Origin: a virus
IMG/VR virus record: IMGVR_UViG_3300030329_004481
DNA length: 64,000 nt
Direction: 5' to 3' (one strand)
A program made the position numbers and the translations under genes. The notes under the pieces are model-generated. The model was not told the DNA's origin. It made no database searches and was given only the letters and a program-made list of their open reading frames with translations. Below, piece by piece: positions 13,174 to 42,645 of the stretch. The stretch's first letter is position 1. Every line of letters starts with the position of its first letter.

Positions 13174-14045
13174 TTTCCTAACATTGATAGTCCAGCTTTT
13201 AATCCTTTAATCAAGTAATATTTTCCCAACTTAACATCTGCGACTTTTGTTTTAGTCCCTTCAATACTTTTTTTATTTGCTAAGTATTGTCTCATCACTT
13301 TCATGTTAGGATTTGCAGCTTTTGGAATTTTCATTGTATCATCCCAATTAGTATATTCTAATTGTGAACCACCTTTCAATGAAATTATATATTCAACCCT
13401 ACCTTGTCCATGATCCCAATGTACAACATCTGTTACTGGAATTTTTAATTGTTGTGCGAATTGTTTAATATTTGCTGTTCCTTGATTAGCAATATTAGCT
13501 TCCTTTAAAATACCTTTAGAAGCCTCAACAATTCCATCAGTTTTATGAAAAGGATTTGGATCAAAGTCTTCAACATATTTGTTTAATTCATACTTACCAT
13601 TTGACATTCCATGAACTTGTATCTGTAATCTTTTTCTTGCTGGTTTACCATCTTTATGCAAATCAATTTTTTTCATTACTGTTTTGCCTGATGATGGTTT
13701 TCTTTGACCGAATGTGACTTCCGAATCATACGAATCTTGATCAACATCAAATCCATGAACTTTTTTTGTATGATCAACAGCATGCTGAATAGCGCTAGAA
13801 TAAGTATCATGGTAGATTTGATATTCATGTTTACTTTTTCTTTTAGCTTCATTAACAACTTTGATCGCATCATCAATTGAAATGTCCTTTTCTGAAAGGA
13901 CTTCTTGTTTTTCATTTGTTTCAGGTCTTGTTTCTGGAACTTCAACAGTAGTTGTTACTTCTGGTTGTTCTTCAGGTTGACCTTGTACAACTCTTAAAAT
14001 TGCATCATTTAAGTTTTTATACTTAGAATTATCTTCAAACCACAT
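13170..14045 (-). CDS. Hypothetical protein, first gene of late cluster
   Basis: 291 aa; AAGGAG RBS; CTAAATA late-promoter-like motif upstream. Confidence 0.75.
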   Translation of the reverse strand: MWFEDNSKYKNLNDAILRVVQGQPEEQPEVTTTVEVPETRPETNEKQEVLSEKDISIDDAIKVVNEAKRKSKHEYQIYHDTYSSAIQHAVDHTKKVHGFDVDQDSYDSEVTFGQRKPSSGKTVMKKIDLHKDGKPARKRLQIQVHGMSNGKYELNKYVEDFDPNPFHKTDGIVEASKGILKEANIANQGTANIKQFAQQLKIPVTDVVHWDHGQGRVEYIISLKGGSQLEYTNWDDTMKIPKAANPNMKVMRQYLANKKSIEGTKTKVADVKLGKYYLIKGLKAGLSMLGK

Positions 14046-14078
14046 AATAGACTCCTTGGTAAATATTTCATACTATTC

Positions 14079-14085
14079 TATTTAG
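14079..14085 (-). promoter_or_regulatory. Late (gp55-type) promoter-like motif CTAAATA
   Basis: Variant of T4 TATAAATA at the gp41/virion-cluster boundary; same motif precedes gp3 and gp18. Confidence 0.55.
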
Positions 14086-15518
14086 TTGAAGTTAAAACTC
14101 CCAAAATCTTTCTTTTGAAATTTATTATCAGTGGCTTTGTCAAATGCAGGAGTATCATCATATGCGTCCGTTTTCTTTACTTTTTTGCCACCATCAACAA
14201 CATCATTGATACCAGCTTGGGCGGTTTCTTCAAGATCAAATAGTCTCATCTTTTTTCTATCCACTCCAATCATAAACCTTTTATTAAAAGTAGGATCACT
14301 ATAACGATTTTTAAGTTGCTTAACTAACAGTTGGCCCAATTCCTCAAGTTCTTCTGTAGATATAATAGCAAACATAAAATCTGCGGTGGCGGGCAAACCA
14401 AAAGATTCAGATGTATCTTCTAATCCAATGTCTGTAGAAGTAAATCCACCTCTTGTAGTTTGTGTAGCGGAAACTACAGGTACATTATATTCAACCGCAA
14501 GGCCTCTCAATTCCTCAGCAATTGATTTAATATAAGTATATGAATTAACATATGCACCTGCTTTAATTCTAGAAGACATACAAATATTCAAATAATCAAT
14601 GAATATAATGTCTGGTCTAAAATCTCTCTTTAATGAAAGTTCATTTAGTAAACTTCTAAAATGTTGTGTACCTGCTGAAGCAGTGGGATATTCTTTAATA
14701 ATTAATTTACCTTTAGCTTTGTCTTTTAATTTTTGTACTTTAGAATCAAAAACTTCTTTAGGTAATTCTTGTATATCATCAATAGAAACATTTAAAAGAT
14801 TGGCATCAATTCTCATTGCAATCTTTTCTTCAGCCATTTCCATGGTCACATATAAAACATTCTTTCCTTCATTCAAACAATTTGCAGCAACATGACACAT
14901 GAACAATGATTTACCTACACCAGTACCAGCCAATGCAATATTTAATGTTTTATTTGGTAAACCACCTTTAGTTATCTTATTAAAATAATCTAAATCAAAT
15001 GGGATTCTTTCTTCGACCTTATGGTAGAAATCATAACGCTGATCACTATTATCAATGTAATCATGACCAATATTGGGGTCAAAAGTAACACCCAAAGCAT
15101 CTGTAAGAATCTCAGGAATAGATCCTTTAGTTTTATCAGTTTTGTTCCCAGGGCTGATAATATTAACGCTCTCCATAATCGCATTATATAATGCTCTATC
15201 TTGGCAAAAGGTTTCAGTAGTATTAAGTAACCAATCCATATCAGATTCTTCATCTTTATTTTCCTCTAAGAATCCTAGTAGTTTGATACATTTTTCAAAA
15301 TCATCTTCATGTAATCCTGTCGCTTCATTAAGATTAATTGTTAATGCTTCTCTGGTAGGTAAATTGTTATATGTTGAAACAAAACTATTAACATATTCAA
15401 ATAAAACCTTTTCAGATCTATCTTCAAAATATTCTGGTTGTAAATAAGGAAGAACCTTACGAGTGTAAGATTCGTTATAGATAATATTTTTTAAAATTAG
15501 ATGTTCTACTCTATCCAT
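14082..15518 (-). CDS. gp41: Replicative DNA helicase (T4 gp41-like)
   Basis: LAGTGVGKS Walker A, IFIDYL, SATQTTR, TSESFGLPATAD, KQLKNRY. Confidence 0.97.
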   Translation of the reverse strand: MDRVEHLILKNIIYNESYTRKVLPYLQPEYFEDRSEKVLFEYVNSFVSTYNNLPTREALTINLNEATGLHEDDFEKCIKLLGFLEENKDEESDMDWLLNTTETFCQDRALYNAIMESVNIISPGNKTDKTKGSIPEILTDALGVTFDPNIGHDYIDNSDQRYDFYHKVEERIPFDLDYFNKITKGGLPNKTLNIALAGTGVGKSLFMCHVAANCLNEGKNVLYVTMEMAEEKIAMRIDANLLNVSIDDIQELPKEVFDSKVQKLKDKAKGKLIIKEYPTASAGTQHFRSLLNELSLKRDFRPDIIFIDYLNICMSSRIKAGAYVNSYTYIKSIAEELRGLAVEYNVPVVSATQTTRGGFTSTDIGLEDTSESFGLPATADFMFAIISTEELEELGQLLVKQLKNRYSDPTFNKRFMIGVDRKKMRLFDLEETAQAGINDVVDGGKKVKKTDAYDDTPAFDKATDNKFQKKDFGSFNFN

Positions 15519-15544
15519 TGTTCTCCATGTTTAAGTTTATTATT

Positions 15545-15573
15545 ATTGTAACACAAAGAATATTCAATGTCAA
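15545..15573 (-). promoter_or_regulatory. Sigma70-type promoter for gp41
   Basis: TTGACA-N17-TACAAT with extended -10 TG. Confidence 0.8.
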
Positions 15574-15971
15574 GGCATTTGAAATAAAGCTTTTACCCAA
15601 TGTTGAGGTTTATTTCTAGCGAAGACAACCCAACCAAAATAATTAGGTTTTCTATTTCTAAAGTATTCATTTGTAAATTCATCCATTGACCCACCAGTTG
15701 TCAAAACATCGTCACATATAAGATATGGGTCTTCATCATGATTACCCGTGGCATATTCATTCAAGTGTCTGCCTAGTTCAACACCACCTCTTGGTATACC
15801 GATAGCGGCACAAAAAGGTCGTGTCTCATGTTCCATGATCATTCTCGCAATACACTTCCATTCATTAGGAAATATTGCATCACATTCGATCTTCCAATGC
15901 AACTCACCACCAGAATGACCAATGAAGTCTTCTTCTACAAACAAATAGTTTTCTCTCACATGAAATCCCAT
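15570..15971 (-). CDS. Short orotate-phosphoribosyltransferase-like type I PRTase
   Basis: FIGHSG...WKIECD, GIPRGG, LICDDVLTTGGS PRPP loop; near pyrF; start placed at TAATG overlap (alternative 15986). Confidence 0.7.
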   Translation of the reverse strand: MGFHVRENYLFVEEDFIGHSGGELHWKIECDAIFPNEWKCIARMIMEHETRPFCAAIGIPRGGVELGRHLNEYATGNHDEDPYLICDDVLTTGGSMDEFTNEYFRNRKPNYFGWVVFARNKPQHWVKALFQMP

Positions 15972-16171
15972 TATATCATCCCCCAATCATTTTCAATTTT
16001 GTCCATCTTTTTTGCAAGGTCATATCTATTTTTTCTTAATTCTCTAGCAAGTCTCATTGATGCTTCATACAAATCATAAGAACTATTTGCCAATGATATT
16101 AATTCTGTTTCTGTCATGTTATCTAAATCAATCTCTATTATATCATATTTATTTGGTTTAAATTTAAACAC
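15971..16171 (-). CDS. Hypothetical protein
   Basis: 66 aa, overlaps neighbours at both ends. Confidence 0.65.
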   Translation of the reverse strand: MFKFKPNKYDIIEIDLDNMTETELISLANSSYDLYEASMRLARELRKNRYDLAKKMDKIENDWGMI

Positions 16172-16530
16172 TATGGCAATCCTCGTTCTCTATAATGAAA
16201 AAATGATTCTGAATTATATGATTTATCGCAGATGTACATATCAAAATGAGGTTTGTTACCTACTTGCAAATCATGATACTTTACACCCCATTCTAGAAAT
16301 TGTTGCTTTGTTAATTCTGTATAATCATCACCGCTTTTACAACCTCTTGCAGTCCAATATACTATTTCATGCCCATCATCATATAAAGAGTTAATGTGAG
16401 CAATTCTATCAGGATATGGTTTTACATCACTATATGCAATTGATATGTCTTGATCTCTTAAATCATCTCTATTCTGACATATTGTACCATCAACATCAAC
16501 ATAAATTATTTTTTTCTTTTTTAATTTCAT
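16171..16530 (-). CDS. Small cap-less HAD-superfamily phosphatase
   Basis: IYVDVDGT (motif I), YWTARG (II), KP..DMYICDK (III/IV). Confidence 0.85.
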   Translation of the reverse strand: MKLKKKKIIYVDVDGTICQNRDDLRDQDISIAYSDVKPYPDRIAHINSLYDDGHEIVYWTARGCKSGDDYTELTKQQFLEWGVKYHDLQVGNKPHFDMYICDKSYNSESFFHYRERGLP

Positions 16531-17177
16531 AAACTGCCTTTTATTTTCACTAAAACTTCATTGGGGTTTTTTGCTTCTGTTACAGTTCTACCAAGAATTA
16601 TTGTACTCGCACCTTCATCTTTTGCTTCTTTAGGTGATCCTGTACGTGTTTGTCCTGATGTTTCTTTCTCAAATACTATACCAGGACAGATATATCGAAA
16701 TGACATCGGCCCAGATAGATCGAGTGATTTAATCGTTCTCAATTCTGTCACAGGACATACAAGATCTTGAAAATTACTATTTCTAAGTTTAGCCATGCAT
16801 TGTGACCAAACATTATATGATATATCTCTCAGTATTCCACGTTCTGCTTCAGGACTCCATGATGTGAGTGATACAACACCAACTAACTTTATTTGATCTG
16901 ATAGTTTTTTAAGTCTGTCAAATACATCATAACTATTGTGAGCATTGATTGACACCATCGTGCCACCGCGGTCTATGATCTTTTTGACTACTGTTTCAAC
17001 TGTATTAGGTGTATCCCATAACTTAAAATCAACAAACAGTTCTTTCTTCCAACTATCTGGCCATGCTACAATTTCATCCCATAGTAAATGATTTATCTTA
17101 AAACCATCAACATAGTCTTTGATTCTTTCTGCTAATTCTAATGATTTTTTTGTTTCAAGTGATACAAGAATTTTCAT
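16527..17177 (-). CDS. pyrF: Orotidine-5'-phosphate decarboxylase
   Basis: DFKLWDTPNT (DxKxxDxxxT), GFKI, CPGI, GQTR, IILGRTV. Confidence 0.9.
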   Translation of the reverse strand: MKILVSLETKKSLELAERIKDYVDGFKINHLLWDEIVAWPDSWKKELFVDFKLWDTPNTVETVVKKIIDRGGTMVSINAHNSYDVFDRLKKLSDQIKLVGVVSLTSWSPEAERGILRDISYNVWSQCMAKLRNSNFQDLVCPVTELRTIKSLDLSGPMSFRYICPGIVFEKETSGQTRTGSPKEAKDEGASTIILGRTVTEAKNPNEVLVKIKGSL

Positions 17178-17263
17178 AACATTCCATAACTATCCCATGT
17201 TGCGATTATATAATAAGTGCTATAGATGCACAATGAATGAAACAGAAACATTGAAAGTGTCAT
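17174..17263 (-). CDS. 29-aa hydrophobic micropeptide bridging prs and pyrF
   Basis: MTLSMFLFHSLCIYSTYYIIATWDSYGML; TAATG overlap with prs stop and ATGA overlap with pyrF start. Confidence 0.55.
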   Translation of the reverse strand: MTLSMFLFHSLCIYSTYYIIATWDSYGML

Positions 17264-18186
17264 TAGAATAAAACTGAAATAGATTCATCGTGATGTACTC
17301 TACGAATTGCTTCTGCGAATAGTTTACCAACTGAAATTAATTTTACTTTTTGATTATCATATTGAGGAATAGAATCAGTGATAGTCAGCCCAGCCATACT
17401 GGATGAGTTGATTTTCTCCATCCCTCCGTTGCTTAATACGCCATGTGTTATATATGCTCGCACTTCTTCCGCACCAACCTTCAACAGAGCTTCTGCCGCT
17501 TTTACGAGTGTTCCACCTGTGTCCACTATATCGTCTACTATTATACATTGTTTCCCCTTTACTTTACCGATTACATTCATTGCTTCACTCTCATTCGCTT
17601 TATCTCTGCGTTTGTCTATGATAGCAATGTCTAAATTAAGATCTTTTGCCATAGATCTTGCTCTTGGAACACCACCTGCATCAGGTGACACAATTAATGC
17701 ATTTCCTCCACTAACCATTGGGTGTTTCTTTAAATCTTTTACGAATAAAGGTTTAGATCTTAAATCATCAACGGGTATATCAAAAAATCCTTGTATTTGT
17801 CCTGCATGTAAATCCATTGTAAGGACTCTATCTACTCCTGCTGTTTGTAATATATTAGCACACAATTTAGCAGATATGGGTGTTCTGGCAGAAGGTTTTC
17901 TATCTTGTCTTGCATAACCATAGTAAGGCATGACTGCTGTAATTCTACCCGCACTCGCACGTTTACAAGCATCAACCACAATTAACAATTCCATTAGATT
18001 ATCATTTGCTGGATTACAAGTACTTTGTATAATAAAAACATCTTCACCACGAATATTTTCATGTATCTCACAAAAGATTTCACCATCAGCGAACCTTGTT
18101 AATTTCATTTCTGTTAATGCAATTCCTGCATAATTAGATATATGATTTGCTAATAATTTATTAGAATTTCCTGCTAGTAATTTCAT
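17263..18186 (-). CDS. prs: Ribose-phosphate pyrophosphokinase (PRPP synthetase)
   Basis: FADGE, YGYARQDRK, DLHAGQIQGFF, VSPDAGG, IDKRR, VDDIVDTGGT. Confidence 0.97.
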   Translation of the reverse strand: MKLLAGNSNKLLANHISNYAGIALTEMKLTRFADGEIFCEIHENIRGEDVFIIQSTCNPANDNLMELLIVVDACKRASAGRITAVMPYYGYARQDRKPSARTPISAKLCANILQTAGVDRVLTMDLHAGQIQGFFDIPVDDLRSKPLFVKDLKKHPMVSGGNALIVSPDAGGVPRARSMAKDLNLDIAIIDKRRDKANESEAMNVIGKVKGKQCIIVDDIVDTGGTLVKAAEALLKVGAEEVRAYITHGVLSNGGMEKINSSSMAGLTITDSIPQYDNQKVKLISVGKLFAEAIRRVHHDESISVLF

Positions 18187-18212
18187 AATAACCTTTCTAG
18201 ATATATGTGGTT

Positions 18213-18458
18213 TTACATAGCATCAGGACCTCTCACATCAATTTCTGCTATTGTATTTTTTTTATGACTCGGTTCTTTTACAAACTCAATTTTTTCCCAT
18301 TTTTCTACACGATCTTTTAAAAGAAGACAAGTCATCCATTGTTCTTCGTCTTTGTAAATACAAGTATCTCTGTCAAGTGATACTTCTTGAATTGTTCCTC
18401 CACCATCATCGTCATGTCTCCACCCAAAGTGATATGGTGGATCAACTCTAAGCTTCAT
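18213..18458 (-). CDS. Hypothetical protein
   Basis: 81 aa overlapping purC 3' end. Confidence 0.6.
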   Translation of the reverse strand: MKLRVDPPYHFGWRHDDDGGGTIQEVSLDRDTCIYKDEEQWMTCLLLKDRVEKWEKIEFVKEPSHKKNTIAEIDVRGPDAM

Positions 18459-19413
18459 TAAATTTTCTCACATACTCAGTTACAATTTTATATTTTTTCT
18501 CTACGTCTGACATTTCTTCACCATCTCTGAATGATTGTTTGTCAAGTTGTCTTTTCGGATCACCATACGGCCATATTCTCCAACTGTCATTATCGATCAC
18601 ATCTGCAATTACTAATTCATCTTGTAAAGTATATCCTACCTCAATTTTTAAATCAATTAGATTAACATTAAACTTTTTCCATGCTTTCTCTAATAACTCA
18701 AAACATGGAATCATTAATTTTTCTTTTATGTAAGTTAAAGTATCGTCATCTACCAAAGGTAATATATCAAAGATTGGATCTGATTTTATTCTCACATCTT
18801 TTGCAGAGTACAAATACCATTTATGAATATCTGGTTCAATAACAGGATCAGTGTAAACAGTATGAGTCCATTCTCCATCTCTCATATAGAGTTCTCTTGC
18901 TCGTTCCTCTGGCATCATTCTTGTAGTTGGCATCAATCCATGAGGATTATCACAATGTTCTACAGGTGGTACAATTGCATACTTATGAAAGAATTCTAGT
19001 TTTAACGGAATAAATTTATCTGAAGAACTTTTATGCGGAAATCTTTTAATATAACTGCCATATGGTTGTCTACGTATTACACATTCTAATGGTAACATTT
19101 TACAATTCTTTGCAACAAAAACATTAGGTTCTTCATCATCGCTATGAAATGCATTTGGAATATTATTTTTTGTAAGAAATTTAAATATTGATACAACTTG
19201 TTTTGTTTTGTCAACTCCTAAAGGAGTTTCTTGTTTCATTGCGGCATCGTTTGCAGTTAATGAATCTTTAGTTGTAATTTTTACAAGTTCTGAATCATGA
19301 ATACTTCCAGTAACTGGTTCTATTCTTTTTGTTTTACCTTCAGTTAGGTTAGGTTTACCGACACCTTTTCTAGCACGACCGCCTCTCGTTACGTCTTTAG
19401 TTTCTTCTGTCAT
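18448..19413 (-). CDS. purC: SAICAR synthetase
   Basis: EGKTK, LPLECVIRR, LIDLKIEVG, ADVIDNDSWRIWP, LDKQSFRD. Confidence 0.9.
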   Translation of the reverse strand: MTEETKDVTRGGRARKGVGKPNLTEGKTKRIEPVTGSIHDSELVKITTKDSLTANDAAMKQETPLGVDKTKQVVSIFKFLTKNNIPNAFHSDDEEPNVFVAKNCKMLPLECVIRRQPYGSYIKRFPHKSSSDKFIPLKLEFFHKYAIVPPVEHCDNPHGLMPTTRMMPEERARELYMRDGEWTHTVYTDPVIEPDIHKWYLYSAKDVRIKSDPIFDILPLVDDDTLTYIKEKLMIPCFELLEKAWKKFNVNLIDLKIEVGYTLQDELVIADVIDNDSWRIWPYGDPKRQLDKQSFRDGEEMSDVEKKYKIVTEYVRKFNEA

Positions 19414-20504
19414 AACCATGGCATTTGTTTATATCTATGTGCTTTAAAACAACTGTTATGTTCACCAGTAATAAAATTATTTAGAGGCTCAGGATATTCT
19501 GCAAAATCTGGTATGACATACTCCCATACTGTTTCTTGAGTAATTCCATTTATTTCAAATAATCTACCAAAAGCACTTTCACATATAAACACGTTTCCAT
19601 TCCATAATTTTTGAACACTACCCATGTATGGAGAAAAGAAAGAAGGTGGCATGTCATCCATATATGACCATACTAATTTTTTAGTTTCTAAATCATATTC
19701 TACAATTCTAGAATGATGAATAGAAGATGGTCTAATATTTCCATTATCAAAACACATCAAACCTTTGTCTGTTATGGTAGGACAATGTTGTTGTGCAACT
19801 AATGGATATTTCAATTCCCATACTACTTTTTTTGTAGTTTTATCAACTGCAATAATTCCTGATGTTGTTCTTAAACTTAGATAAATTAAATTTCCATGTT
19901 GATGAACTCCATTGATCATTGGCCAATGAAGTCTTTCTTTATAATTGTCACTATTAAAACATTCATGTATTGGATAATCTTCTATTGATAAATGTTCCCA
20001 CGCATTCCATTCCCAAACAACTTCACCATCTCTATTTACTTCTCGAATAGTATCAGAAAAAGGTCTTTGTTGAAATTCTAATGGTACTTTAGAATTAAAA
20101 AGTCCTTTACCACTTTTTACTGGAATTGGTGATGCAACTGTATAAAGTATATTGCCATTGTCTAACCATTGTACATCGTGGTGATGATACGAATCTTCAT
20201 GATCCCAAATAACATCTCCGCTTGGTGTAACTTCCATAAACCATCCACCATGCCAAAGTTCAAATGCAGGATATAAATCGGGAAATGCTTTCATACATCC
20301 AGAATAACCCAAATTACCATTTGGTAATATAACCGCATCTCTGCCTGGTCTTGTTGGAAGATTCCATTCATGAACTACTTGACCCATTATGTTAAGTAAT
20401 ACAACCTTACCATTTCCAGTTTGTGGTGCGTATAAAGTATAACCTCCTGCGGACTCAGGTTCATTTAAAGTTAATCCTAATTTTCTTCTTTTTAATGTTG
20501 TCAT
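19410..20504 (-). CDS. Arylsulfotransferase (ASST)-like beta-propeller protein
   Basis: GYTL, VVHEW, HHD, INGV, QQH, FDNG, SRIVEYD, GSVQKLWNGNVFICES; no signal peptide. Confidence 0.8.
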   Translation of the reverse strand: MTTLKRRKLGLTLNEPESAGGYTLYAPQTGNGKVVLLNIMGQVVHEWNLPTRPGRDAVILPNGNLGYSGCMKAFPDLYPAFELWHGGWFMEVTPSGDVIWDHEDSYHHHDVQWLDNGNILYTVASPIPVKSGKGLFNSKVPLEFQQRPFSDTIREVNRDGEVVWEWNAWEHLSIEDYPIHECFNSDNYKERLHWPMINGVHQHGNLIYLSLRTTSGIIAVDKTTKKVVWELKYPLVAQQHCPTITDKGLMCFDNGNIRPSSIHHSRIVEYDLETKKLVWSYMDDMPPSFFSPYMGSVQKLWNGNVFICESAFGRLFEINGITQETVWEYVIPDFAEYPEPLNNFITGEHNSCFKAHRYKQMPWL

Positions 20505-21262
20505 GCTATTTCACTTTCATGCCATTTCCTTAAAAGAAAATGACCCAATGTTGTAACTGTCATAAAAAATGTAAAACCCATGATTGTTGCTGATGCAATA
20601 AGAGCCATTACTAATGCAGTTTCCATTTCAGCTTGAGCATAAATTATCTGAACACCCAATCCACCATCTTCACTACCTGACCCAATTATAAACTCTCCTA
20701 CAATTGCACCAATTACAGAAAGTCCTGCTGATATTCGTAATCCCGCTATAATGTTTGGTATTGCTGCGGGTAATCTTAATTTATAGAATGCTACTAATCT
20801 TGACTTATTATGTAATTGAAATAGTTCTACTAAATTTATAGATGTCGACTTTAAACCTAATAGAGTATTATTAATAATAGGAAAAAGTGATATAATAAAA
20901 CTAACAATAATTACTGACTTCATTTCAAAACCAAACCATAATACTATTAACGGTGCAACTGCAACAACCGGTACTGTTTGTAAAAGAATAGCATATGGAT
21001 AAAAACTACGTTCTAGTATTTTAGACTGACTCATAATTGCTGCAACTGATATACCAATAATTATTGCAGACAAATATCCTGTTAATGCTTCTTGTATTGT
21101 TAAACTTGCACCAATTAAAACTATTTCAATGTCATTAACAAATGCTTCTGCTACTGCCATTGGTCCAGGTAACATAAATGGTAAATTATAAACTTGTGCT
21201 GCTACAGACCAAATGAATAAAAATAAAATTAAAACCAGTATAGGCGGTATTATATTTTTCAT
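20501..21262 (-). CDS. ABC transporter permease, NitT/TauT (SsuC/TauC) family
   Basis: Multiple TM segments, LQTVPVVAVAPL, KLRLPAAIP, GAIVGEF, GLG; start at MKNIIPP. Confidence 0.92.
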   Translation of the reverse strand: MKNIIPPILVLILFLFIWSVAAQVYNLPFMLPGPMAVAEAFVNDIEIVLIGASLTIQEALTGYLSAIIIGISVAAIMSQSKILERSFYPYAILLQTVPVVAVAPLIVLWFGFEMKSVIIVSFIISLFPIINNTLLGLKSTSINLVELFQLHNKSRLVAFYKLRLPAAIPNIIAGLRISAGLSVIGAIVGEFIIGSGSEDGGLGVQIIYAQAEMETALVMALIASATIMGFTFFMTVTTLGHFLLRKWHESEIA

Positions 21263-21618
21263 TGAACTCCACCAATAAAGACTTGAAAGTTTGATCCAAA
21301 AGAAATCACACAAGTTGATTTATATGATGGATGATACTCTATTATTGTATATGTTCCTGTTGCTGCATTAACATACATATCCATTCTTAATCCAACAGGA
21401 TTTTTTGCTAATCCAGTTTCACTTCTTATCTTTGTATGTTGTGTTGCTTTAAATATTAATTCTTCTTCTTTAGCATTAATTGCTATAAATGTTTCTTCTG
21501 GTGTACCACACATTATTGGTTTGTCATTCCACTCACCGGCTTGCGTAGTAGTATATAATGCCATACATAATAATAAATGCACAGCCATAAACAATGATTG
21601 TAACCATTTTATTTCCAT
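21259..21618 (-). CDS. Hypothetical exported protein inserted in ABC operon
   Basis: Hydrophobic N-terminus ending TQA, KPIMCG, second Cys near C-terminus. Confidence 0.7.
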   Translation of the reverse strand: MEIKWLQSLFMAVHLLLCMALYTTTQAGEWNDKPIMCGTPEETFIAINAKEEELIFKATQHTKIRSETGLAKNPVGLRMDMYVNAATGTYTIIEYHPSYKSTCVISFGSNFQVFIGGVQ

Positions 21619-22322
21619 GTTCTTAATTTTCCTGATATTTCATTCACTAGTTTAGTGAATTGTGATTTGGATCTTAACTTATGATCTCTTTTTTTAAATG
21701 GAATTTCAATTATATCAGTAACCTTTCCAGGTCTAGGAGACATGACAAAAACTCTATTAGATAAGTAAACTGCTTCTGCTACATTGTGAGTAACAAGTAT
21801 AGCAGTAAATTTATCTTTATTCCATAGTGAATGTAATTCTTCTTGTAAGACTTCCCTAGTCAATTCATCAACTGCAGACAAAGGTTCATCTAGTAATATA
21901 TATTCTGGATTTAAAACTAAAGATCTAGCTAATGACAATCTCATTTTCATGCCACCAGATAGTTGATGAGGATAACTTTTTTCAAATCCAGTTAATCCAA
22001 CTTTGTTTAAAACTGAACTTGCTTTATCTTCACGTTCTGACTTATTAACTTTTTCCAACTCCATCAATAACTCAACATTTCCTTGAACTGTTCTCCAAGG
22101 TAACAATGCTGAATCTTGAAAAACAAAAGCACCTTTACCTTCTTTTAAAGTGCTTCCAGTTGTAGGTTTAATCAGTCCAGCAATGATTCTCAATAAAGTA
22201 GACTTGCCACAGCCTGATGGTCCAACAATTGTAATGAACTCGCCTGTGGCAATATCTAAATCATTATTATCAAGTGCGTGAACTTCATCAAATTTCTTTG
22301 TGATGTTCGTTACACGTATCAT
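21609..22322 (-). CDS. ABC transporter ATP-binding subunit, NitT/TauT family
   Basis: GPSGCGKS, FVFQ..ALLPWRTV, LSGGM, ILLDEP, VTH, MSPRPG. Confidence 0.96.
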   Translation of the reverse strand: MIRVTNITKKFDEVHALDNNDLDIATGEFITIVGPSGCGKSTLLRIIAGLIKPTTGSTLKEGKGAFVFQDSALLPWRTVQGNVELLMELEKVNKSEREDKASSVLNKVGLTGFEKSYPHQLSGGMKMRLSLARSLVLNPEYILLDEPLSAVDELTREVLQEELHSLWNKDKFTAILVTHNVAEAVYLSNRVFVMSPRPGKVTDIIEIPFKKRDHKLRSKSQFTKLVNEISGKLRTWK

Positions 22323-22325
22323 GAT

Positions 22326-23261
22326 CTATTTGAAACAACCCTTCTTAAAGGATGTGTCATAAGATGAATGAGGATCAAAACTAGCAGGAAGTACATTCAC
22401 TTCTTTCATTTGATTTGCTAATTCAACCCAACGATTAGGATCTTGACATCCAATCTTACTCCAATCCTTTGGTAAGAAATCACGCTTCATAAGTTCAAGT
22501 GCATTATTATGAATTTCAGCATTTACTTTCTTACTCTTAGATAGAATAAAATCTCTTGTTGGTTTTGGATCAATCAAAGATTTAGGAAATGAAATACTTA
22601 ACCTGTCAACTACTGCTTGAACTAATTCAGGATTTTCTTTAATTAGTTTATCAGTTGTAAACAATACACTATAAGGTCTGTATCCCAATTCCTCAATAGT
22701 AATTTGTTCAGTTGCTACACCTTTTGCTGCCAATCTAGCAGGAAGAAAAAGTGAATACCCTTGCTGAAATTGTTGTGGTGTTCTTGCAAACAATCCCAAG
22801 TCTCCTGTCAATGGAAACTCTTTAACTGCATTCAATTGATACTTTTGCTTAACCCACTTCCAATAGGTGACACCCATCTTGACCGCAAATGGCCTACCAT
22901 CCAAATCTTTTACTGACTTAACACCAGTATTAGGATGATATACTAAAGTATAAGGAACATGATTGAGACTTACAAAAATACCTTTAAGTCCTGCTCCCTT
23001 TGCATTGGCCGTCATTACACTATCAGATGCTTGAAGTCCAAACTCAACTTGACCAGATGCTACCATTTGAGTAGTATTTACTTTTGGTCCACCAGATTTA
23101 ACTTTGATTGTTACATCATCATGATATTGATTATCAAACTCTGCTTGCCAATATCCACTTTGATTTCCTTGTGGAAACCAATCCATCAACAATGTTACTT
23201 CTTTTGCGAAAGCACTTGTTGTGAATACAAGTGCCACTAAACTAATTAGAATTTTTTTCAT
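22326..23261 (-). CDS. ABC substrate-binding protein, NMT1/THI5-like
   Basis: Signal peptide ending AFA; VTLLMDWFPQGNQSGYWQA, SGGP, SVKDLDG. Confidence 0.85.
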   Translation of the reverse strand: MKKILISLVALVFTTSAFAKEVTLLMDWFPQGNQSGYWQAEFDNQYHDDVTIKVKSGGPKVNTTQMVASGQVEFGLQASDSVMTANAKGAGLKGIFVSLNHVPYTLVYHPNTGVKSVKDLDGRPFAVKMGVTYWKWVKQKYQLNAVKEFPLTGDLGLFARTPQQFQQGYSLFLPARLAAKGVATEQITIEELGYRPYSVLFTTDKLIKENPELVQAVVDRLSISFPKSLIDPKPTRDFILSKSKKVNAEIHNNALELMKRDFLPKDWSKIGCQDPNRWVELANQMKEVNVLPASFDPHSSYDTSFKKGCFK

Positions 23262-23273
23262 ATTATCCTTTCA

Positions 23274-24332
23274 TTATTTAACTGGAAATTTAGAAGTCAC
23301 GCCCTTAACAAAAAACTGCATTGTTTCCAATTCAGGTCTTGCAAGAACGCCTGCTTTAATTTTGGAACCATCCTGTTTGGTGACTCCTTGATCAAATGGA
23401 TAGTATGTACCCATCTTGTCGTTGATCCAATCCATTTTGATTGTCTCAACTTTGTTTACAACTTCGCCAGGCACGTTCTTACCCCAAGGAGAAAGACCTA
23501 CACAATTCTTTTCTATTCCCCATGCCCATCGTTGGCCCATCTTTAGTTTGCCCTCTGCAAGTTGATCTACAATATGTTTATAAAGTAAATTCCAGTTGAA
23601 CATCATACCTGTGATGTAACTATTAGGGCCAAATTGTCCCATAGGTGCATCATTACCCATACTCCAAACACCATCTAATTTTTCTGCCAATGTAACTACA
23701 GATGGTGAATCCGTAGTGGTAAACAAAATGTCATTACCTTGTTCTGCAAGAACTTTTGCCGCATCCATATCTTTAGGTGGATCAAACCATGAATTAATCC
23801 ATACAATCTCAACTTCAATATCAGGATTTACAGATTGAGCACCAATAGTTAATGCGTTGATGTTACGAATAATTTCTGGAATTGGGTGAGAACCAACAAC
23901 TCCAATCTTATTCGTTTTAGTCATCATACCTGCAGCAATACCTGAAAGGTATCTTGCTTGAAATGAGTGACAAACATAATTGTCCATGTTTGTATCATTG
24001 CCTTTATAACCTGTGGCATGCATGAAGATTGTCTTCTTGTTCTTTGCAGATGCACGAACCATAGGTTCCATGTAACCAAATGATGTTGCAAAAACAATAT
24101 CATGTTTTCTTGCAAGTTTTTTGAAAACTCTTTCACTATCTGCTTCAGGCACAGACTCTACACCTTCAACTGCATATCCATGTTTTGTGAGAGATTTGAA
24201 TCCATCTGAATGTCTCATTGACCAACCACCATCGTTTGATGGTCCCACCAGAACATAACCAACACTAATATCTTTTGCTACCAAACTAAAAGCAAAAGTA
24301 AGAGTAACTAAACTAAGAATTAATTTTTTCAT
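23274..24332 (-). CDS. BMP/PnrA-family purine nucleobase/nucleoside-binding protein
   Basis: Signal peptide without lipobox Cys; VGPSNDGGW, ESVPE, FATSFGYM, HATGY, IPEIIRNINA, SWFDP. Confidence 0.9.
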   Translation of the reverse strand: MKKLILSLVTLTFAFSLVAKDISVGYVLVGPSNDGGWSMRHSDGFKSLTKHGYAVEGVESVPEADSERVFKKLARKHDIVFATSFGYMEPMVRASAKNKKTIFMHATGYKGNDTNMDNYVCHSFQARYLSGIAAGMMTKTNKIGVVGSHPIPEIIRNINALTIGAQSVNPDIEVEIVWINSWFDPPKDMDAAKVLAEQGNDILFTTTDSPSVVTLAEKLDGVWSMGNDAPMGQFGPNSYITGMMFNWNLLYKHIVDQLAEGKLKMGQRWAWGIEKNCVGLSPWGKNVPGEVVNKVETIKMDWINDKMGTYYPFDQGVTKQDGSKIKAGVLARPELETMQFFVKGVTSKFPVK

Positions 24333-24360
24333 TTGTCTCCTTCCGAGAATAATAAATCAA

Positions 24361-24384
24361 ACGGTGAGTCTTCCAACTCACCGC
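24361..24384 (-). promoter_or_regulatory. GNRA-capped hairpin upstream of BMP gene (weak terminator or mRNA stabiliser)
   Basis: GCGGTGAGTT-GGAA-GACTCACCGT followed by TTGATTTATT. Confidence 0.6.
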
Positions 24385-24406
24385 ATTAAATAACTATATA
24401 GGTTTT

Positions 24407-24628
24407 TTATTTCTGTGAATAAATCCCCCATAATACCCAAACAGCAACTAAACCTACGAGTCCTTCGCTTCCAAGTTGCTTAACAATACCTACAACAGAA
24501 CCCACAACATCTATTCCTAAGAATGGTACTGCGGCACCGAATAGGATTTGAAGCACTACTCCAAGTGCAATAAGTGCTAGGCCGATTTCTGTAATGGATC
24601 GAATCCATCCAAGAACTTTATCTATCAT
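24407..24628 (-). CDS. Small membrane protein
   Basis: 73 aa, very hydrophobic, Gly-rich; AAGGAG RBS. Confidence 0.8.
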   Translation of the reverse strand: MIDKVLGWIRSITEIGLALIALGVVLQILFGAAVPFLGIDVVGSVVGIVKQLGSEGLVGLVAVWVLWGIYSQK

Positions 24629-24649
24629 TTTTGTCTCCTTATTTAAAAA

Positions 24650-25123
24650 TTAAACGGGTGCGTTCCACCATTGTTCCCATGGAAAATGAATCCATAGATC
24701 TTCGGTATCTTTCGCAACCTCTTTGACATAATATGTTGGTTCAAAATCACATTCATTGTTCCACCAAAGGCTCGCAAACCTTACATCCACTGGCAATTCC
24801 AATGGAGAATTTTTACGTGGACCTTTAATCCAACCCTGCATTTTTGCAAATGTTTTTCCTGAATCACATATATCATCAACAATTAAAACCCTTTCATCAG
24901 TAGGTTTTGGCAAATAGTCTTCCCATTCTGGAAAGTCTCTTAATGACGATTTAACAGGTTTAAACGGTTTTTTAAACCAATGAGATAACATAACTCCAGG
25001 AGTCAAACCACCCCTAGATAAACCAACGATCACATTGGGATTAAAATTGTCTAAAACAATATCCCTAGCGAGAACATTAACGTCTCGACGCATTTCTTCC
25101 CAACTATACCATAACTTCTTCAT
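24650..25123 (-). CDS. Purine phosphoribosyltransferase (xanthine-guanine PRT-like)
   Basis: YSWEE, VGLSRGGLTPG, VLIVDDICDSGKT, WIHFPWE. Confidence 0.88.
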   Translation of the reverse strand: MKKLWYSWEEMRRDVNVLARDIVLDNFNPNVIVGLSRGGLTPGVMLSHWFKKPFKPVKSSLRDFPEWEDYLPKPTDERVLIVDDICDSGKTFAKMQGWIKGPRKNSPLELPVDVRFASLWWNNECDFEPTYYVKEVAKDTEDLWIHFPWEQWWNAPV

Positions 25124-26162
25124 CGGTTACCTCACTTTCTTCAATTAAGTGACTACCATCTCCATATGAGAATTCTTTTTCACAAGCCTTATCAATTTTA
25201 TTTAATAAATCTTCTGTGAAAAATCTTTCCGGATCTTTATAGATCTCTTTTCCATAAAACATTTTACCATCTATCTCAAACCTATTTGCAACTTTTTTAA
25301 TAATATCATACTTAGTTGCAATATCGAGTAGTCCATAGTATTTATCTAATCCCTTTTCATAGGTTAATAAAGTATCAACCATTCTATTCTCAATTGTAAA
25401 TCTAGATTTATAAGTTTTACAATGAATTATATTACCAATAACTTCTGTTCCAACCTTTTCTTTTTTCTTTCCAAGAAAAATAATTGATGAAGCTAAATAT
25501 TTTAGACCTTTACCACCTGCTATTTCTTTTGTTGCATACATTGATCCAACTGCATCATAGGTATGTTGTGTAATCACAAGTGGAACTTCAGCCTCTCCAC
25601 ATTTAAATGTCATTATTTTTAATGCCGCCTTGAGCAATTTTGAATCTTGCATATTTGCTACATGATGTCCCTCAAGTGTATTTTCCATTTGCTTTTTTGC
25701 AACTAATCCACCCATAGAATCCAAAACACATAGTAATGGTTTTTTATCTTTATCTTTTTTATACTCATCTAAGATCTGAGCCATTTGTGTTCCCCATTCT
25801 TCAATTATACCAATGGGTAAAAATATCATTCTATCTGTTGGGATTCCTCTATCTGTTAACATTTTCTGTGTTATTGCTAACTCTGTATCACAATATATTA
25901 CATTTCCTTCTGGGTTAGCATCAAGAAAATTCTTACACATACTAAGTGCAAAAAATGTTTTGCCTGTTGCACTTTCACCAGCAAAACAAGTTACTTTGTT
26001 TCCAGGAAGACCTTTAAAAATACTACCTGAAAGTATTGCATTAACAATATAAGATCCTGTATCAACCCAATATGGAACATCAGCACTTTCAAGTCCTTCA
26101 GAAGCAAGAGATACAAGAGGATTCTTTGTAATATTTTTTACCGTATCAAAAAAAGTATTCAT
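25104..26162 (-). CDS. uvsX: RecA-like recombinase UvsX
   Basis: DTGSY..NAILSG, AGESATGKT, VLDSMG, GGKGLKYLAS, KSRFT, GLDKYYGL. Confidence 0.93.
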   Translation of the reverse strand: MNTFFDTVKNITKNPLVSLASEGLESADVPYWVDTGSYIVNAILSGSIFKGLPGNKVTCFAGESATGKTFFALSMCKNFLDANPEGNVIYCDTELAITQKMLTDRGIPTDRMIFLPIGIIEEWGTQMAQILDEYKKDKDKKPLLCVLDSMGGLVAKKQMENTLEGHHVANMQDSKLLKAALKIMTFKCGEAEVPLVITQHTYDAVGSMYATKEIAGGKGLKYLASSIIFLGKKKEKVGTEVIGNIIHCKTYKSRFTIENRMVDTLLTYEKGLDKYYGLLDIATKYDIIKKVANRFEIDGKMFYGKEIYKDPERFFTEDLLNKIDKACEKEFSYGDGSHLIEESEVTDEEVMV

Positions 26163-26422
26163 TTATTTTCTCCTTTCGGTTGTCTTGGTTTGCGGGGTTT
26201 TCTAGGTTTTTTATTTTGATTTGTTTTAGGTGAGTCTGGTTGTTTTTTTGCTCTTGGTTTGCGGGGTTTCTTTGGTTTCTTTTTCTCAACTATCTTTTCA
26301 TAACCTTCATCAGTAGTTGTTGGTTCTTTTTCTTCTGGTTCATGATTAGGCATATTCTTCACTTCTTCAAGTGGAACAACCTTTCCACCAAACCATGACA
26401 TAATCTTTTCAATGATACTCAT
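26159..26422 (-). CDS. Small protein with Lys/Arg/Pro-rich tail
   Basis: Duplicated KKPRKPR motif. Confidence 0.7.
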   Translation of the reverse strand: MSIIEKIMSWFGGKVVPLEEVKNMPNHEPEEKEPTTTDEGYEKIVEKKKPKKPRKPRAKKQPDSPKTNQNKKPRKPRKPRQPKGENK

Positions 26423-26431
26423 TTATTCCTT

Positions 26432-28951
26432 TCATCCAAAAAATGATTCTAATGTTGCTTTTCTTTCTGTCTCCCAACCAATGGTATCTAAAATAATTTT
26501 AAGTGGATCTAAAAATGATTTTGTAAACTGCAAATCATAATCAATATATTTTTCCAATTGAAATTCTTTAGGGAATGTATTTAACATTGCGATAACATTA
26601 TCAGTAGTGGGATTTGGAGTTTTCAAATAAGTGTATTTTATTTTTTCTCCTTCTTGAATTGATTGATATTTACTATTCAATTTATGTTTGCGAATCATAT
26701 CATTGTATATGATTGCTCCACGAATATGAAGTGGCGTCCCTTTTTTGTAAAGCTGGTTTGGATCATAATACTTATTGACCCCTTGTACAGATCTAGGAAA
26801 AGAAACATCTTCAATAGGAAGACTTTTAAATGCTTGTTTAAATTCTTCAATGAAATCTAACATTGCAGATTCATCTTGATTCATGATAATATCAATTGCT
26901 TCTCTCAACTTCTCACGACACGCAGAAGGTGTAGAAGATTTAACTGCTTCAATGCCCATCATTTTAATTTTGGGAGTTTTATATCTAACACCCTCATTAT
27001 CATAGACATTTAACATATATCTTTTCTTCGCAGTCCAGATACCTTTGTCTGATAATCCTTCACGCTTCATGAACATTTTTTGTTCATAAGCATTCATGTA
27101 ATTAAAAAGATTCTCAAAAGAATTATTTATAACATCTTGAAGTTTTCCATCACAAACTTTATCTAGAAAGTCAATGACTTTTTCTTTATCAGAAGTATCA
27201 CCAAAAACATTATTAACTAATTTATCAAGAACAACATATATAGAATCTGTATCACTAGCAATAACATAATCAACACCTTCTGTTTTCAACAACTTATTTA
27301 AAAAGTTGTTAACATCTCTTTCAACCCACTGGATTGAAAGTTGACCTGCTTTGGTAACTGCTTCAGCTTGTCTAACATCATAGAATCTGAAATATTGATT
27401 ACCTAAAGCGCCATAAGCAGAATTAAGAGAAACTTTCTTAGCCATCTGCAAATTTTTAAACTTGTCAATTCTATTTGATATTTCCTTTGTTTTGTTTATC
27501 TCATATTCCTTCTGTGCTTCAATCATTTGTTCTTTGTATTGAACACGATTATCATACATATTCTGCATCATCTCTGGAAGGAACCCATGAATTTCTCTCT
27601 TGAAAAATTGACCATTGGGAGTCATACAAAGATTATATTGTTTTAAAATAGAAGTATCAAGTTTTTGTTTTAGTAATGTTTCAACACTAATTTGATCCTT
27701 TAATATTTGAATATCATTTGGTAGTCTTTCCTCAATTAATGTTTCTGGTGAAATGTTATACTGCATAATTAAATGAGGATACAGACTATTCAAATCAAAA
27801 GAAACAACCCAATCATGTTTACCAACTTGAGGATTTTTGACATAGGCACCCGCATATGCGGAATCTTTAATATTTTTTTCCTTTTGTGGAATAACAATAT
27901 TATTCATTCTCAAATAATTAAAAGCAAGAATATCCCACATTCTCACTTGCTTAAAGACATCTTCAAAATTTGATTTAGCGTCATAAGAAAGAACAACAGC
28001 TTGCTCAACCAATCTTTTCTTATCTTCAATCTGCTCAACCAATTCCACGTCTTTAATATTGTAATCAATAAACTTCTGATAATCTAGTTTGTACAATTGA
28101 TGTAATGTTTCAAATTCAGAATAGTCTAACTTCTTTTCACCAAGTTCAACATGAGCAATATGATCTAGTCTATATGATTCTTGATTTGTGAATGTAAACT
28201 TTTTATAAAGATCAAGATAATCTAGAATTGCTATACCAGTTAAGTTGTAAGTTTGCATCCACTTACCACCCATACCAGCAACCTTTGATTCTCTAACATA
28301 ACTCCAAGGAGACAATTGCCTACAGAATTTTTCACCAAACAGATTTGTAATTCTATTAACAAGATATGGAATATCAAAAAACTTAACATTCCATCCAGTT
28401 ACAATGTCTGGTGATATTCTTTTCCAATGATCAACAAATGTATTGACCAAACCATCTTCTGTTTCACATTTAATATATCTAACATCTTCTCTTGTATTGT
28501 GATAATCACCACAACCAATTACAATAAAATCTTTACCGCATTTCATTGTAATAGCAGTTATTTGTTCTCTCGCTTCTTCTGGTTTAGGAAATCCAGATTC
28601 AGATCCAACCTCAATATCAATGTATAAAACTTTGATACTTTCAAAATCATAATCAACTGTTGCACCAGGATACTCATCAGAAAGATAACAATACATCCAA
28701 CTAGTGAAACCAAAGATTTCAAAGTTTTCTATAGTGTCATACTTTTGAATAAATTCTTTTGCATCTGCAATATTTCCAAAGTCCATTTTAGAAACATTGG
28801 CACCAGACAATGTTTTATATTTTGATTCTTCTTTTGATGGAACGAATAGGGAAGGAGAATATTCAATTCTGTTTTTGAAGGGAACTCCATCTTTGATACC
28901 TCGTTCTAAAACGAAGTTCCCATACTGAGAAACATTTGTGTAGAATTTCAT
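26432..28951 (-). CDS. gp43: Family B DNA polymerase (T4 gp43-like)
   Basis: DIE exo I, GWNVKFFD, SFDLNSLYP, KVSLNSAYG, SDTDS, KKRY; no intein. Confidence 0.98.
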   Translation of the reverse strand: MKFYTNVSQYGNFVLERGIKDGVPFKNRIEYSPSLFVPSKEESKYKTLSGANVSKMDFGNIADAKEFIQKYDTIENFEIFGFTSWMYCYLSDEYPGATVDYDFESIKVLYIDIEVGSESGFPKPEEAREQITAITMKCGKDFIVIGCGDYHNTREDVRYIKCETEDGLVNTFVDHWKRISPDIVTGWNVKFFDIPYLVNRITNLFGEKFCRQLSPWSYVRESKVAGMGGKWMQTYNLTGIAILDYLDLYKKFTFTNQESYRLDHIAHVELGEKKLDYSEFETLHQLYKLDYQKFIDYNIKDVELVEQIEDKKRLVEQAVVLSYDAKSNFEDVFKQVRMWDILAFNYLRMNNIVIPQKEKNIKDSAYAGAYVKNPQVGKHDWVVSFDLNSLYPHLIMQYNISPETLIEERLPNDIQILKDQISVETLLKQKLDTSILKQYNLCMTPNGQFFKREIHGFLPEMMQNMYDNRVQYKEQMIEAQKEYEINKTKEISNRIDKFKNLQMAKKVSLNSAYGALGNQYFRFYDVRQAEAVTKAGQLSIQWVERDVNNFLNKLLKTEGVDYVIASDTDSIYVVLDKLVNNVFGDTSDKEKVIDFLDKVCDGKLQDVINNSFENLFNYMNAYEQKMFMKREGLSDKGIWTAKKRYMLNVYDNEGVRYKTPKIKMMGIEAVKSSTPSACREKLREAIDIIMNQDESAMLDFIEEFKQAFKSLPIEDVSFPRSVQGVNKYYDPNQLYKKGTPLHIRGAIIYNDMIRKHKLNSKYQSIQEGEKIKYTYLKTPNPTTDNVIAMLNTFPKEFQLEKYIDYDLQFTKSFLDPLKIILDTIGWETERKATLESFFG

Positions 28952-29125
28952 TTAATAATGTGGATATTGTTTTGTGTCTATTCCTAACTTGTTTAATTTA
29001 TTATAACACGAAGTTATCTGTTTGTCAATCCAAGTTTTCTTAGATTGAAACATTCCTAATGCAAATAGAACTTGCAAGTAACATAATATAAAAAATCTAT
29101 TTAACGCCAACCAAACCTTTTTCAT
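28952..29125 (-). CDS. 57-aa single-TM protein overlapping the peptidase 3' end
   Basis: Read manually: MKKVWLALNRFFILCYLQVLFALGMFQSKKTWIDKQITSCYNKLNKLGIDTKQYPHY; stop abuts gp43 ATG. Confidence 0.55.
   Translation of the reverse strand: MKKVWLALNRFFILCYLQVLFALGMFQSKKTWIDKQITSCYNKLNKLGIDTKQYPHY
29000..29028 (-). promoter_or_regulatory. Sigma70-type promoter for gp43
   Basis: Perfect TTGACA-N17-TATAAT with extended TG. Confidence 0.85.
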
Positions 29126-42513: not shown

Positions 42514-42645
42514 CTACTTCAACCAAGTTTCTTCTTCCAGATGTTTAGACTCATGTTCTTTTAATTCTTCAACATCTGTAAAAATTTCATCACATTCAAA
42601 ACAACTATTAAAACCATGCTTTTCATAGAAGTCTTGTTGCGTCAT
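42514..42645 (-). CDS. 43-aa C2H2 zinc-finger microprotein
   Basis: MTQQDFYEKHGFNSCFECDEIFTDVEELKEHESKHLEEETWLK matches C-x2-C-x3-F-x5-L-x2-H-x3-H; ATGA overlap with upstream gene. Confidence 0.75.
   Translation of the reverse strand: MTQQDFYEKHGFNSCFECDEIFTDVEELKEHESKHLEEETWLK

Follow-up and report, generated by a model that had tools for sequence, protein, structure and literature searches.

An island of about 9.5 kb, rich in genes for nucleotide metabolism and uptake, separates the replication genes uvsX and gp41 in the viral record IMGVR_UViG_3300030329_004481 of IMG/VR (the window, by which we mean the whole stretch of 64,000 nucleotides that was analysed; positions refer to it unless another contig is named). 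We put at roughly two in three the probability that this block, 15570-25123 on the minus strand, is a modular auxiliary gene island with which a marine T4-like phage of about 245 kb, infecting a diderm host, raises nucleotide supply during replication through salvage and not de novo synthesis. In the arrangement we propose, an exported binding protein of the BMP family would bind free purine bases in the periplasm and pass them to a host BMP/CUT2-type ATP-binding cassette (ABC) permease, and the phosphoribosyltransferase (PRTase) PRT157 would trap the imported base as a nucleoside monophosphate using phosphoribosyl pyrophosphate (PRPP). A second module, Prs, would raise PRPP, the co-substrate of all PRTases of the island, and a third, formed by the candidate orotate PRTase (OPRT) PRT138 together with PyrF, would push orotate via orotidine monophosphate (OMP) to uridine monophosphate (UMP), with a HAD phosphatase and PurC relieving other steps. 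The fourth module, made up of an NMT1 binding protein, an ATPase, the small protein o119 and a permease, would be a self-sufficient importer, taken from a cellular operon under a LacI-family regulator and coupled to a cytoplasmic enzyme resembling arylsulfate sulfotransferase (ASST) that processes its cargo, most likely a nucleobase-like N-heterocycle. Phages are already known to carry nucleotide genes and orphan binding proteins; what is new is a purine receptor wired to a PRTase, together with a whole importer and its uncharacterised enzyme partner.

Every open reading frame (ORF) from 14 kb to 29 kb lies on the minus strand, and the order of transcription runs from uvsX through PRT157, o73, BMP, NMT1, ATPase, o119, permease, ASST-like, purC, o81, prs, pyrF, HAD, o66 and PRT138 to gp41. 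Gene families were assigned with Pfam, NCBIfam and PHROGs, whose matches bear out the block of named genes that an original prediction, made from the DNA letters alone, had placed between uvsX and gp41; only its label "pyrE-like" is unproven, as PRT138 matches no OPRT model and occurs without pyrF in some lineages. The largely overlapping stop and start codons that it reported are also present, with overlaps of 1-20 nt joining most neighbours. In cyanophage records and in other loci, uvsX and gp41 adjoin each other. The genes of the island and its flanks are as follows.

14082-15518, minus strand: gp41-like DnaB helicase, flank
15570-15971, minus strand: PRT138 (listed as ORF 15570-15986; it more likely starts at the ATG at 15971, as in relatives)
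15971-16171, minus strand: small ORF o66
16171-16530, minus strand: small HAD-family phosphatase-like protein (phrog_1238, DVDGT motif)
16527-17177, minus strand: pyrF, OMP decarboxylase-like (OMPdecase, 76.5 bits)
17263-18186, minus strand: prs (NF002320, three Pfam domains)
18213-18458, minus strand: small ORF o81
18448-19419, minus strand: purC, a divergent SAICAR synthetase (SAICAR_synt, 114 bits)
19410-20504, minus strand: ASST-like gene (PF05935, 92.6 bits)
20501-21262, minus strand: ABC permease of 253 aa (BPD_transp_1, 88.8 bits; likely ATG at 21262, an identical 253-aa gene being called on contig L174)
21259-21618, minus strand: o119, small, with a hydrophobic N-terminus
21609-22322, minus strand: ABC ATPase (ABC_tran, 103.7 bits)
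22326-23261, minus strand: NMT1 binding protein (NMT1, 67.3 bits)
23274-24332, minus strand: BMP (Bmp, 152.7 bits)
24407-24628, minus strand: o73, 73 aa, hydrophobic
24650-25123, minus strand: PRT157 (Pribosyltran, 52.9 bits; its start overlaps the uvsX stop by 20 nt)
25104-26162, minus strand: uvsX/RecA, flank
26432-28951, minus strand: gp43, just beyond uvsX

The block recurs as part of a phage genome. The exact PRT157 protein is present on at least 24 contigs of up to 244,604 bp (it corresponds to 69 blocks of the contig collection, from which 24 contigs were read), and 23 of these 24, from different samples, share the neighbourhood gp43-o87-uvsX-PRT157-o73-BMP-NMT1-ATPase-o119-permease-ASST-purC, among them the contig of 244,604 bp and a 125,854-bp Tara scaffold. 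IMG/VR contig L173 supplies the other end, ASST...prs...HAD...PRT138-gp41, at 89-96% nucleotide identity, and 18 DNA runs, which come from at least 8 studies dated 2014-2025, contain near-identical DNA. In the independent DNA run X6, zero-difference contigs span both the PRT138/gp41 junction (13900-16220) and the PRT157/uvsX junction (24912-26500). The original prediction had named a host-phage chimeric assembly as a way in which it could fail and had proposed a search of viral databases and a check of the junctions: the gene combination proved recurrent, and the contig neighbourhoods, L173 and the X6 junction contigs refute the chimera.

An assembly artefact more broadly, whether chimera or mis-join, that would put the island outside the phage genome is in our estimate extremely improbable. 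It could draw on the lack of a match to the island among cultured phages, on the island lying elsewhere in related contigs, after phoH and S21, and on the distance between the nearest IMG/VR uvsX, at 56% identity, and the 85-96% relatives that island genes have there; but the shared order in 23 of the 24 contigs, the PRT138-gp41 junction on L173, the two junctions spanned without a difference in X6, the start/stop overlap across uvsX/PRT157 and a GC content that is the same in island and flanks all speak against it. The IMG/VR uvsX relatives, at no more than 56% identity, gave no confirmation of the uvsX junction; the contig neighbourhoods and run X6 did. A megablast search with the island found no match among cultured and GenBank phages, and uvsX shares no more than 54% identity with its counterpart in the OM43 phage Melnitz and 51% with those of cyanophages. 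We therefore assign the phage, on sequence divergence, to what appears to be a new marine T4-like lineage, uncultured, abundant and of about 245 kb.

The invariant core of the island is the pair of PRT157 and BMP. BMP exceeds the Pfam Bmp cut-off of 24.1 bits more than sixfold and begins with a Sec-type signal peptide without a lipobox cysteine, and is therefore predicted to be a soluble periplasmic protein acting in a diderm host. Residues 16-350 match the structures 3s99 (E 1e-64) and AtzT 6pi5 (E 2.6e-62) in the Protein Data Bank (PDB). The affinities of AtzT are 110 nM for guanine and 2.5 µM for adenine, with pyrimidine bases taken only at 620 µM or weaker and GTP not bound (above 8 mM), and 3s99 was deposited with adenine in its pocket (PMC6834077). 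The alignment keeps the stacking aromatic residue (Trp for Tyr45), the Ser-Phe of TSFG, the Glu-x3-Asn of PEIIRN and the second stacking residue, the Trp of NSWFDP; Asn218 is replaced by Thr and Asn220 by Asp, an Asp also found in adenine-bound 3s99 (numbering mapped by eye). BMP is thus best read as a predicted binder of purine bases rather than nucleosides, so that of the external bases and nucleosides in the original prediction the purine bases remain and the nucleosides do not. Relatives of BMP occur on at least 222 IMG/VR contigs, and the ligand-contact residues and the export signal are kept across them.

PRT157 scores twice the Pribosyltran cut-off of 26.3 bits, carries the PRPP-binding loop VLIVDDICDSGKT and matches the purine PRTase 1vdm in the PDB (E 3.9e-11) and Sulfolobus GpT-1/2; its sequence marks it as a short purine PRTase of the xanthine-guanine PRTase (XGPRT)/archaeal type. 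No equivalog model that would give its base specificity was reached (XPRT NF006613, 37.5 bits against a cut-off of 138). Of the 67 viral loci with enough flank, 53 have PRT157 just upstream of BMP, usually with o73 in between, and in other lineages the PRT157-o73-BMP trio sits between gp43 and uvsX. The intervening o73 reads as two transmembrane helices and is 76-94% conserved between PRT157 and BMP in many loci; it has no family match in Pfam, PHROGs or NCBIfam.

The same partnership is found in a cell. A Pelagibacteraceae single-cell genome (L221) encodes a tandem-ABC ATPase, two BPD_transp_2 permeases and a BMP, followed by a convergent PRTase; its BMP is 38% identical to the phage protein and its PRTase 31% identical to PRT157 (E 7e-12). 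An assimilation step described as "uptake transporter plus purine PRTase" is near-universal in SAR11 (PMC11698098). The phage locus resembles this system (L221; PMC11698098; 3s99 and AtzT, PMC6834077) in protein family, in purine contacts and in pairing a binding protein with a short PRTase, and differs in lacking the tandem-ABC ATPase and the two BPD_transp_2 permeases and in adding the two-helix peptide. Judging from these likenesses, the phage would have taken both ends of a SAR11-type route, capture and trapping, and omitted the membrane parts, and the comparison supports BMP and PRT157 as a putative purine capture and salvage pair.

How a base bound by BMP would reach the cytoplasm is the part of this reading that leans on the host. 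None of its cognate partners, BPD_transp_2 permeases of the CUT2 type and a tandem ABC ATPase, lies within the island, so BMP appears to be an orphan that would have to rely on a host CUT2-type transporter. The NitT/TauT-type permease encoded next to it was considered as a partner and rejected: most BMP-carrying phages lack the importer cassette, and cellular BMP pairs with BPD_transp_2. Cyanophages and pelagimyophages provide the precedent in PstS, a phosphate-binding protein of their own which presumably docks on the host ABC permease, and it is from this orphan that we infer docking of BMP. The two have in common an orphan periplasmic binding protein in a marine T4-like phage and a presumed boost to the import of a nutrient that is limiting for DNA synthesis by the phage. 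In contrast to PstS, BMP would serve purine bases and is hard-wired to a trapping enzyme, PRT157, and the island also holds a complete importer, which is absent from PstS-type phage genes.

What weighs against docking is distance. Among the matches listed, cellular BMP relatives are only 36-43% identical, so that the fit to a host permease is an assumption, and they spread over Alpha-, Beta- and Gammaproteobacteria, so that assigning a host through BMP failed. With no cellular relative above 43% identity among those matches, the phage BMP lineage appears old and diverged. This divergence, the missing permease and ATPase and the conserved two-helix peptide o73 at its side would also suit a BMP that takes no part in transport and instead serves to soak up or sense purines in the periplasm, or is a factor in surface properties or exclusion, with PRT157 recycling bases from degraded host nucleic acids. 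We hold this to be quite improbable: the SAR11 locus pairs the same binding protein and PRTase with a full transporter, ligand contacts and export signal persist in at least 222 viral contigs, and cyanophage PstS offers a precedent for an orphan phage binding protein that uses a host permease. We accordingly retain purine capture and salvage as the preferred role of the pair.

The enzymes downstream fit a salvage scheme to different degrees. Prs scores 462 bits against NF002320 (cut-off 297) and 385 bits against TIGR01251 (cut-off 113), as expected of a canonical class I ribose-phosphate diphosphokinase (PRPP synthetase), and the proposal that Prs supplies PRPP to the PRTases holds at this level. 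PyrF clears the OMPdecase cut-off of 27 bits, and its alignment with solved OMP decarboxylases shows the catalytic motifs retained: DxKxxD in the form DFKLWD, a Lys upstream of it and a Gly-Arg towards the C-terminus; the preceding OPRT step, proposed for PRT138, is unproven. PurC, above the SAICAR_synt cut-off of 20 bits, matches in two blocks that an insertion of about 90 residues separates, and among solved structures it comes closest to the SAICAR domain of human PAICS (1.3e-32), not to a bacterial PurC. The small ORF o81 travels with purC (with purM in relatives) and is 82% identical in L081/L082. The HAD-like protein matches phrog_1238 at 1.8e-24 and HAD_PNKP at 21 bits, below the cut-off, and for o66 neither Pfam nor PHROGs gave a match, nor did tblastn find a relative in the loci compared.

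PRT138 carries the PRPP loop DDVLTTGGS and an invariant IPRGG, and belongs to a family of proteins of about 132 aa with more than 3,000 metagenomic homologues. An AlphaFold2 model built from 37 sequences reached a pLDDT of 64 (a single-sequence model, at 44, was unusable), and Foldseek with it returned type I PRTases only, UMPS/OPRT (TM-score 0.54-0.58) slightly ahead of XGPRT (about 0.5), all at E >= 1.9e-3. Of 22 loci, 12 have pyrF next to PRT138 or no more than about 2 kb away, the order being swapped in L040/L066. We regard it as a candidate OPRT, for which the name "pyrE" goes too far. Several scores count against the functions given to these enzymes: PyrF reaches 83.4 bits under the TIGR01740 cut-off of 92.3 and PurC 65 bits under the TIGR00081 cut-off of 190, while PRT138 falls short of the Pribosyltran cut-off of 26.3 bits (24.2), has no NCBIfam match and so reaches no PyrE/OPRT model, and finds nothing significant in the PDB by single-sequence or profile search (best profile E 0.29, an OPRT). 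In the remaining loci of the 22, moreover, PRT138 occurs without pyrF, next to an adenine PRTase (APRT)-type enzyme.

The second half of the uptake machinery forms a cassette of its own. One NMT1 binding protein, one BPD_transp_1 permease and one ATPase stand in an operon, with the identical set called on L174, and with o119 they make up what by family membership is a complete NitT/TauT-type importer. The binding protein has a signal peptide, and its best PDB match is 4nmy (E 2.4e-7). Homologues of o119 lie between ATPase and permease in L006, L008 and L081, and the protein has no family match in Pfam, PHROGs or NCBIfam. No substrate class among taurine, sulfonate, nitrate and the thiamine-precursor pyrimidines HMP/FAMP could be assigned to the importer, as equivalog and subfamily scores were far below cut-offs: the nearest models are SaoA, TauB and NtrCD for the ATPase and SaoP, NtrB, SsuC and TauC for the permease, all under their cut-offs.

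The ASST-like protein next to the importer belongs to a six-bladed propeller family. In contrast to E. coli AssT it has no hydrophobic N-terminal signal sequence, and for lack of a signal peptide it is predicted to be cytoplasmic. A single-sequence search against the PDB gave no match; the family profile matches the sulfotransferase 9kf4 (4.8e-18) and E. coli AssT 3elq (7.9e-15), and a near-invariant H240 (QQH) aligns with the QH(D) of 9kf4, within a stretch aligned to 3elq positions 432-515. The phage protein thus shares with AssT and 9kf4 the propeller fold family and the position of a conserved histidine, and differs from AssT in lacking a signal peptide, in being about 200 residues shorter and in having importers and LacI-family regulators as partners. 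The family is large (6,792 cluster representatives at E <= 0.001), and an ASST-like gene occurs in 3 of 401 sampled Pseudomonadota genomes, where two of the neighbourhoods (a tgt gene; a TctC receptor) were uninformative and the third genome, which is unpublished, supports none of the claims made here.

Cellular neighbourhoods point to an association of this enzyme with importers. Genomes of the Roseobacter group (L262, L263) carry an operon of ASST-like gene (55% identical to that of the phage), permease, ATPase and NMT1 with a divergent LacI-family regulator, and in two other genomes an ASST-like gene lies beside an NMT1-type ABC system, with LacI-family regulators, a nucleoside hydrolase, an isochorismatase-family gene and dihydroorotase-like amidohydrolases nearby. 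In Salmonella Infantis (AFYI01000003.1; L256:7778-11442), STM3632, annotated "hypothetical" and 54% identical to the phage enzyme, stands between a LacI-family regulator and a uracil/xanthine (NCS2) permease; no copy of this pair was found in E. coli genomes, and an "Escherichia phage" match to the ASST-like protein probably carries Salmonella DNA. Literature searches returned no text mentioning STM3632, and to our knowledge none of these Roseobacter and Salmonella ASST-like/transporter systems has been characterised. With the Roseobacter operon the phage shares the same four parts (enzyme, permease, ATPase and NMT1), and with it and STM3632 an enzyme 48-55% identical; it differs from the Roseobacter operon in gene order and in a binding protein and permease not detectably close to the Roseobacter ones, and from both in lacking the regulator and having the additional small o119, predicted to be exported. 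We conclude from these comparisons that the importer cassette is apparently a unit borrowed from cells, with the ASST-like enzyme as its fourth member. The original prediction had counted the NMT1 ABC system towards its uptake of bases and nucleosides; it is a separate cassette whose true partner appears to be the cytoplasmic ASST-like enzyme. The nucleotide-supply reading survives largely intact, while a single transporter-fed "PRPP hub" is too tidy, BMP and the NMT1 importer being separate modules.

By analogy with these loci, we give somewhat better than even odds to a nucleobase-like N-heterocycle as the cargo of the importer and place it ahead of an organosulfate. Only tentatively do we extend this to a wider proposal, in which the ASST-fold enzyme and importer of the phage, Roseobacter and Salmonella loci would represent a widespread uncharacterised pathway that processes an imported nucleobase-like compound, and the phage would own two independent base-uptake routes into a PRPP-driven salvage hub. 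The competing explanation is organosulfur use: an aromatic sulfate ester or sulfonate would be imported as sulfuryl donor for a cytoplasmic sulfotransferase independent of 3'-phosphoadenosine 5'-phosphosulfate (PAPS), for instance in phage tailoring chemistry, and nucleotide supply would be left to BMP/PRTase, Prs and PyrF. Its leads are also facts that count against a nucleobase cargo: SsuA_fam, at 48 bits under a cut-off of 163, is the one curated match that the binding protein has, the permease lies nearest to SsuC, TauC and NtrB models, the ASST-like family profile finds 9kf4 and AssT with the conserved histidine aligned, and in Marinimicrobia two ASST-like paralogues stand between PAPS reductase and ATP sulfurylase with sulfatases nearby. 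H240, the presumed sulfo-histidine, would likewise favour an organosulfate. Yet the sulfur-family scores are all far below cut-offs, the closest cellular homologues (48-55%) are under LacI-family and not typical sulfur regulators, in Salmonella the enzyme is partnered by a uracil/xanthine permease, other genomes have a nucleoside hydrolase and cyclic amidohydrolases close by, and the phage cassette is always embedded among nucleotide genes. We judge organosulfur use unlikely, and keep the nucleobase-like compound as the preferred cargo.

Comparison with close strains and related phages shows that the island is a hot spot assembled from cassettes around the PRT157-BMP core. In run X11, close strains cleanly lack either purC and o81, the sequence joining 18194 to 19405, or pyrF, 16516 being joined to 17263 with 11 replacement letters. 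These absences count against the scheme for the enzymes: purC and pyrF are dispensable cassettes, and the island is therefore a mosaic of modules and not one fixed pathway. Other lineages insert further genes at the same place. L081 (3902-5131; also L082) has a marine-subtype ammonium transporter between o75 and BMP (TIGR03644, 551 bits against 514), and both contigs also carry purM and a DIOX_N/2OG-Fe(II) oxygenase; in L048 (8528-9520 and 12282-12836) and L051 (8208-9470), PRT157-BMP is flanked by GMP reductase (474 bits against 397) and an APRT-type PRTase (218 against 143), with isocitrate lyase beside the pair in L051. The nucleotide theme gains support from the GMP reductase, the APRT-type PRTase and the purM that related phages have at this spot.

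Traces of expression come from two metatranscriptomes of the same samples as DNA runs X6 and X7, which contain contigs identical to BMP, o73/PRT157, NMT1, ATPase, permease, uvsX and o87. The summed word depth of the RNA contigs is far higher over BMP than elsewhere, and DNA depth is flat. As these libraries may contain contaminating DNA, we count the contigs as weak evidence for transcription; parts of the island without RNA-contig cover give no evidence of silence. The strand shared with the replication genes and the overlaps with them suggest that expression would be early or middle.

Single pur/pyr auxiliary genes (pyrE, purM, purC) and prs are scattered through cyanophages and other phages. 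Like those genes (PMC4022391; phage prs matches), the island holds phage copies of pathway enzymes near replication genes; it differs in clustering at least eight such genes with two uptake systems, in a mosaic that recurs across lineages. A pelagimyophage survey lists other nucleotide genes and no transporter, BMP or PRTase, and literature searches found no publication describing the island. It joins two ideas, nucleotide-synthesis auxiliary genes and uptake-boosting binding proteins, in phages that are abundant across many marine metagenomes, and the phage probably drives its host to take up external bases as a source of nucleotides, going beyond the single nutrient-binding genes known from phages. 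Purines and pyrimidines are cross-fed among Prochlorococcus, SAR11 and other plankton (PMC11698098); if our reading is true, infected cells would be stronger sinks for dissolved purines and perhaps pyrimidines. The island also flags three uncharacterised families: the importer-linked ASST-like enzyme, the abundant 132-aa PRTase-like protein and the conserved two-helix peptide.

Two possible regulatory signals were noted by pattern matching within the island and at its edge; in the promoter scan the overall count was not above shuffled expectation.

24361-24384, minus strand: hairpin between o73 and BMP, terminator-like or stabilising, with a 10-bp stem and then a T-rich tail
15545-15573, minus strand: sigma-70-like promoter in the PRT138-gp41 spacer (11/12, extended TG)

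In the related phage contigs where the island follows phoH and S21, it ends at a truncated AsnRS-like gene, which lies there directly after PRT138 on the opposite strand. Here the corresponding gene is at 42642-43517 and encodes a 291-aa protein resembling class II aminoacyl-tRNA synthetases, with no anticodon-binding domain; from this displacement we take the present genome to be rearranged relative to those contigs. In Salipiger (L262:13342-17055), a further NMT1-type ABC system adjoins the ASST-like/ABC operon, and after it comes a DIOX_N/2OG-Fe(II) oxygenase whose two Pfam domains are also those of the oxygenase that interrupts the phage cassette in L081. Upstream of gp43, at 29097-30671, gene calls on the identical contig L174 give a Peptidase_M15_3 protein, a Mom-like protein and an HSP20 small heat-shock protein.

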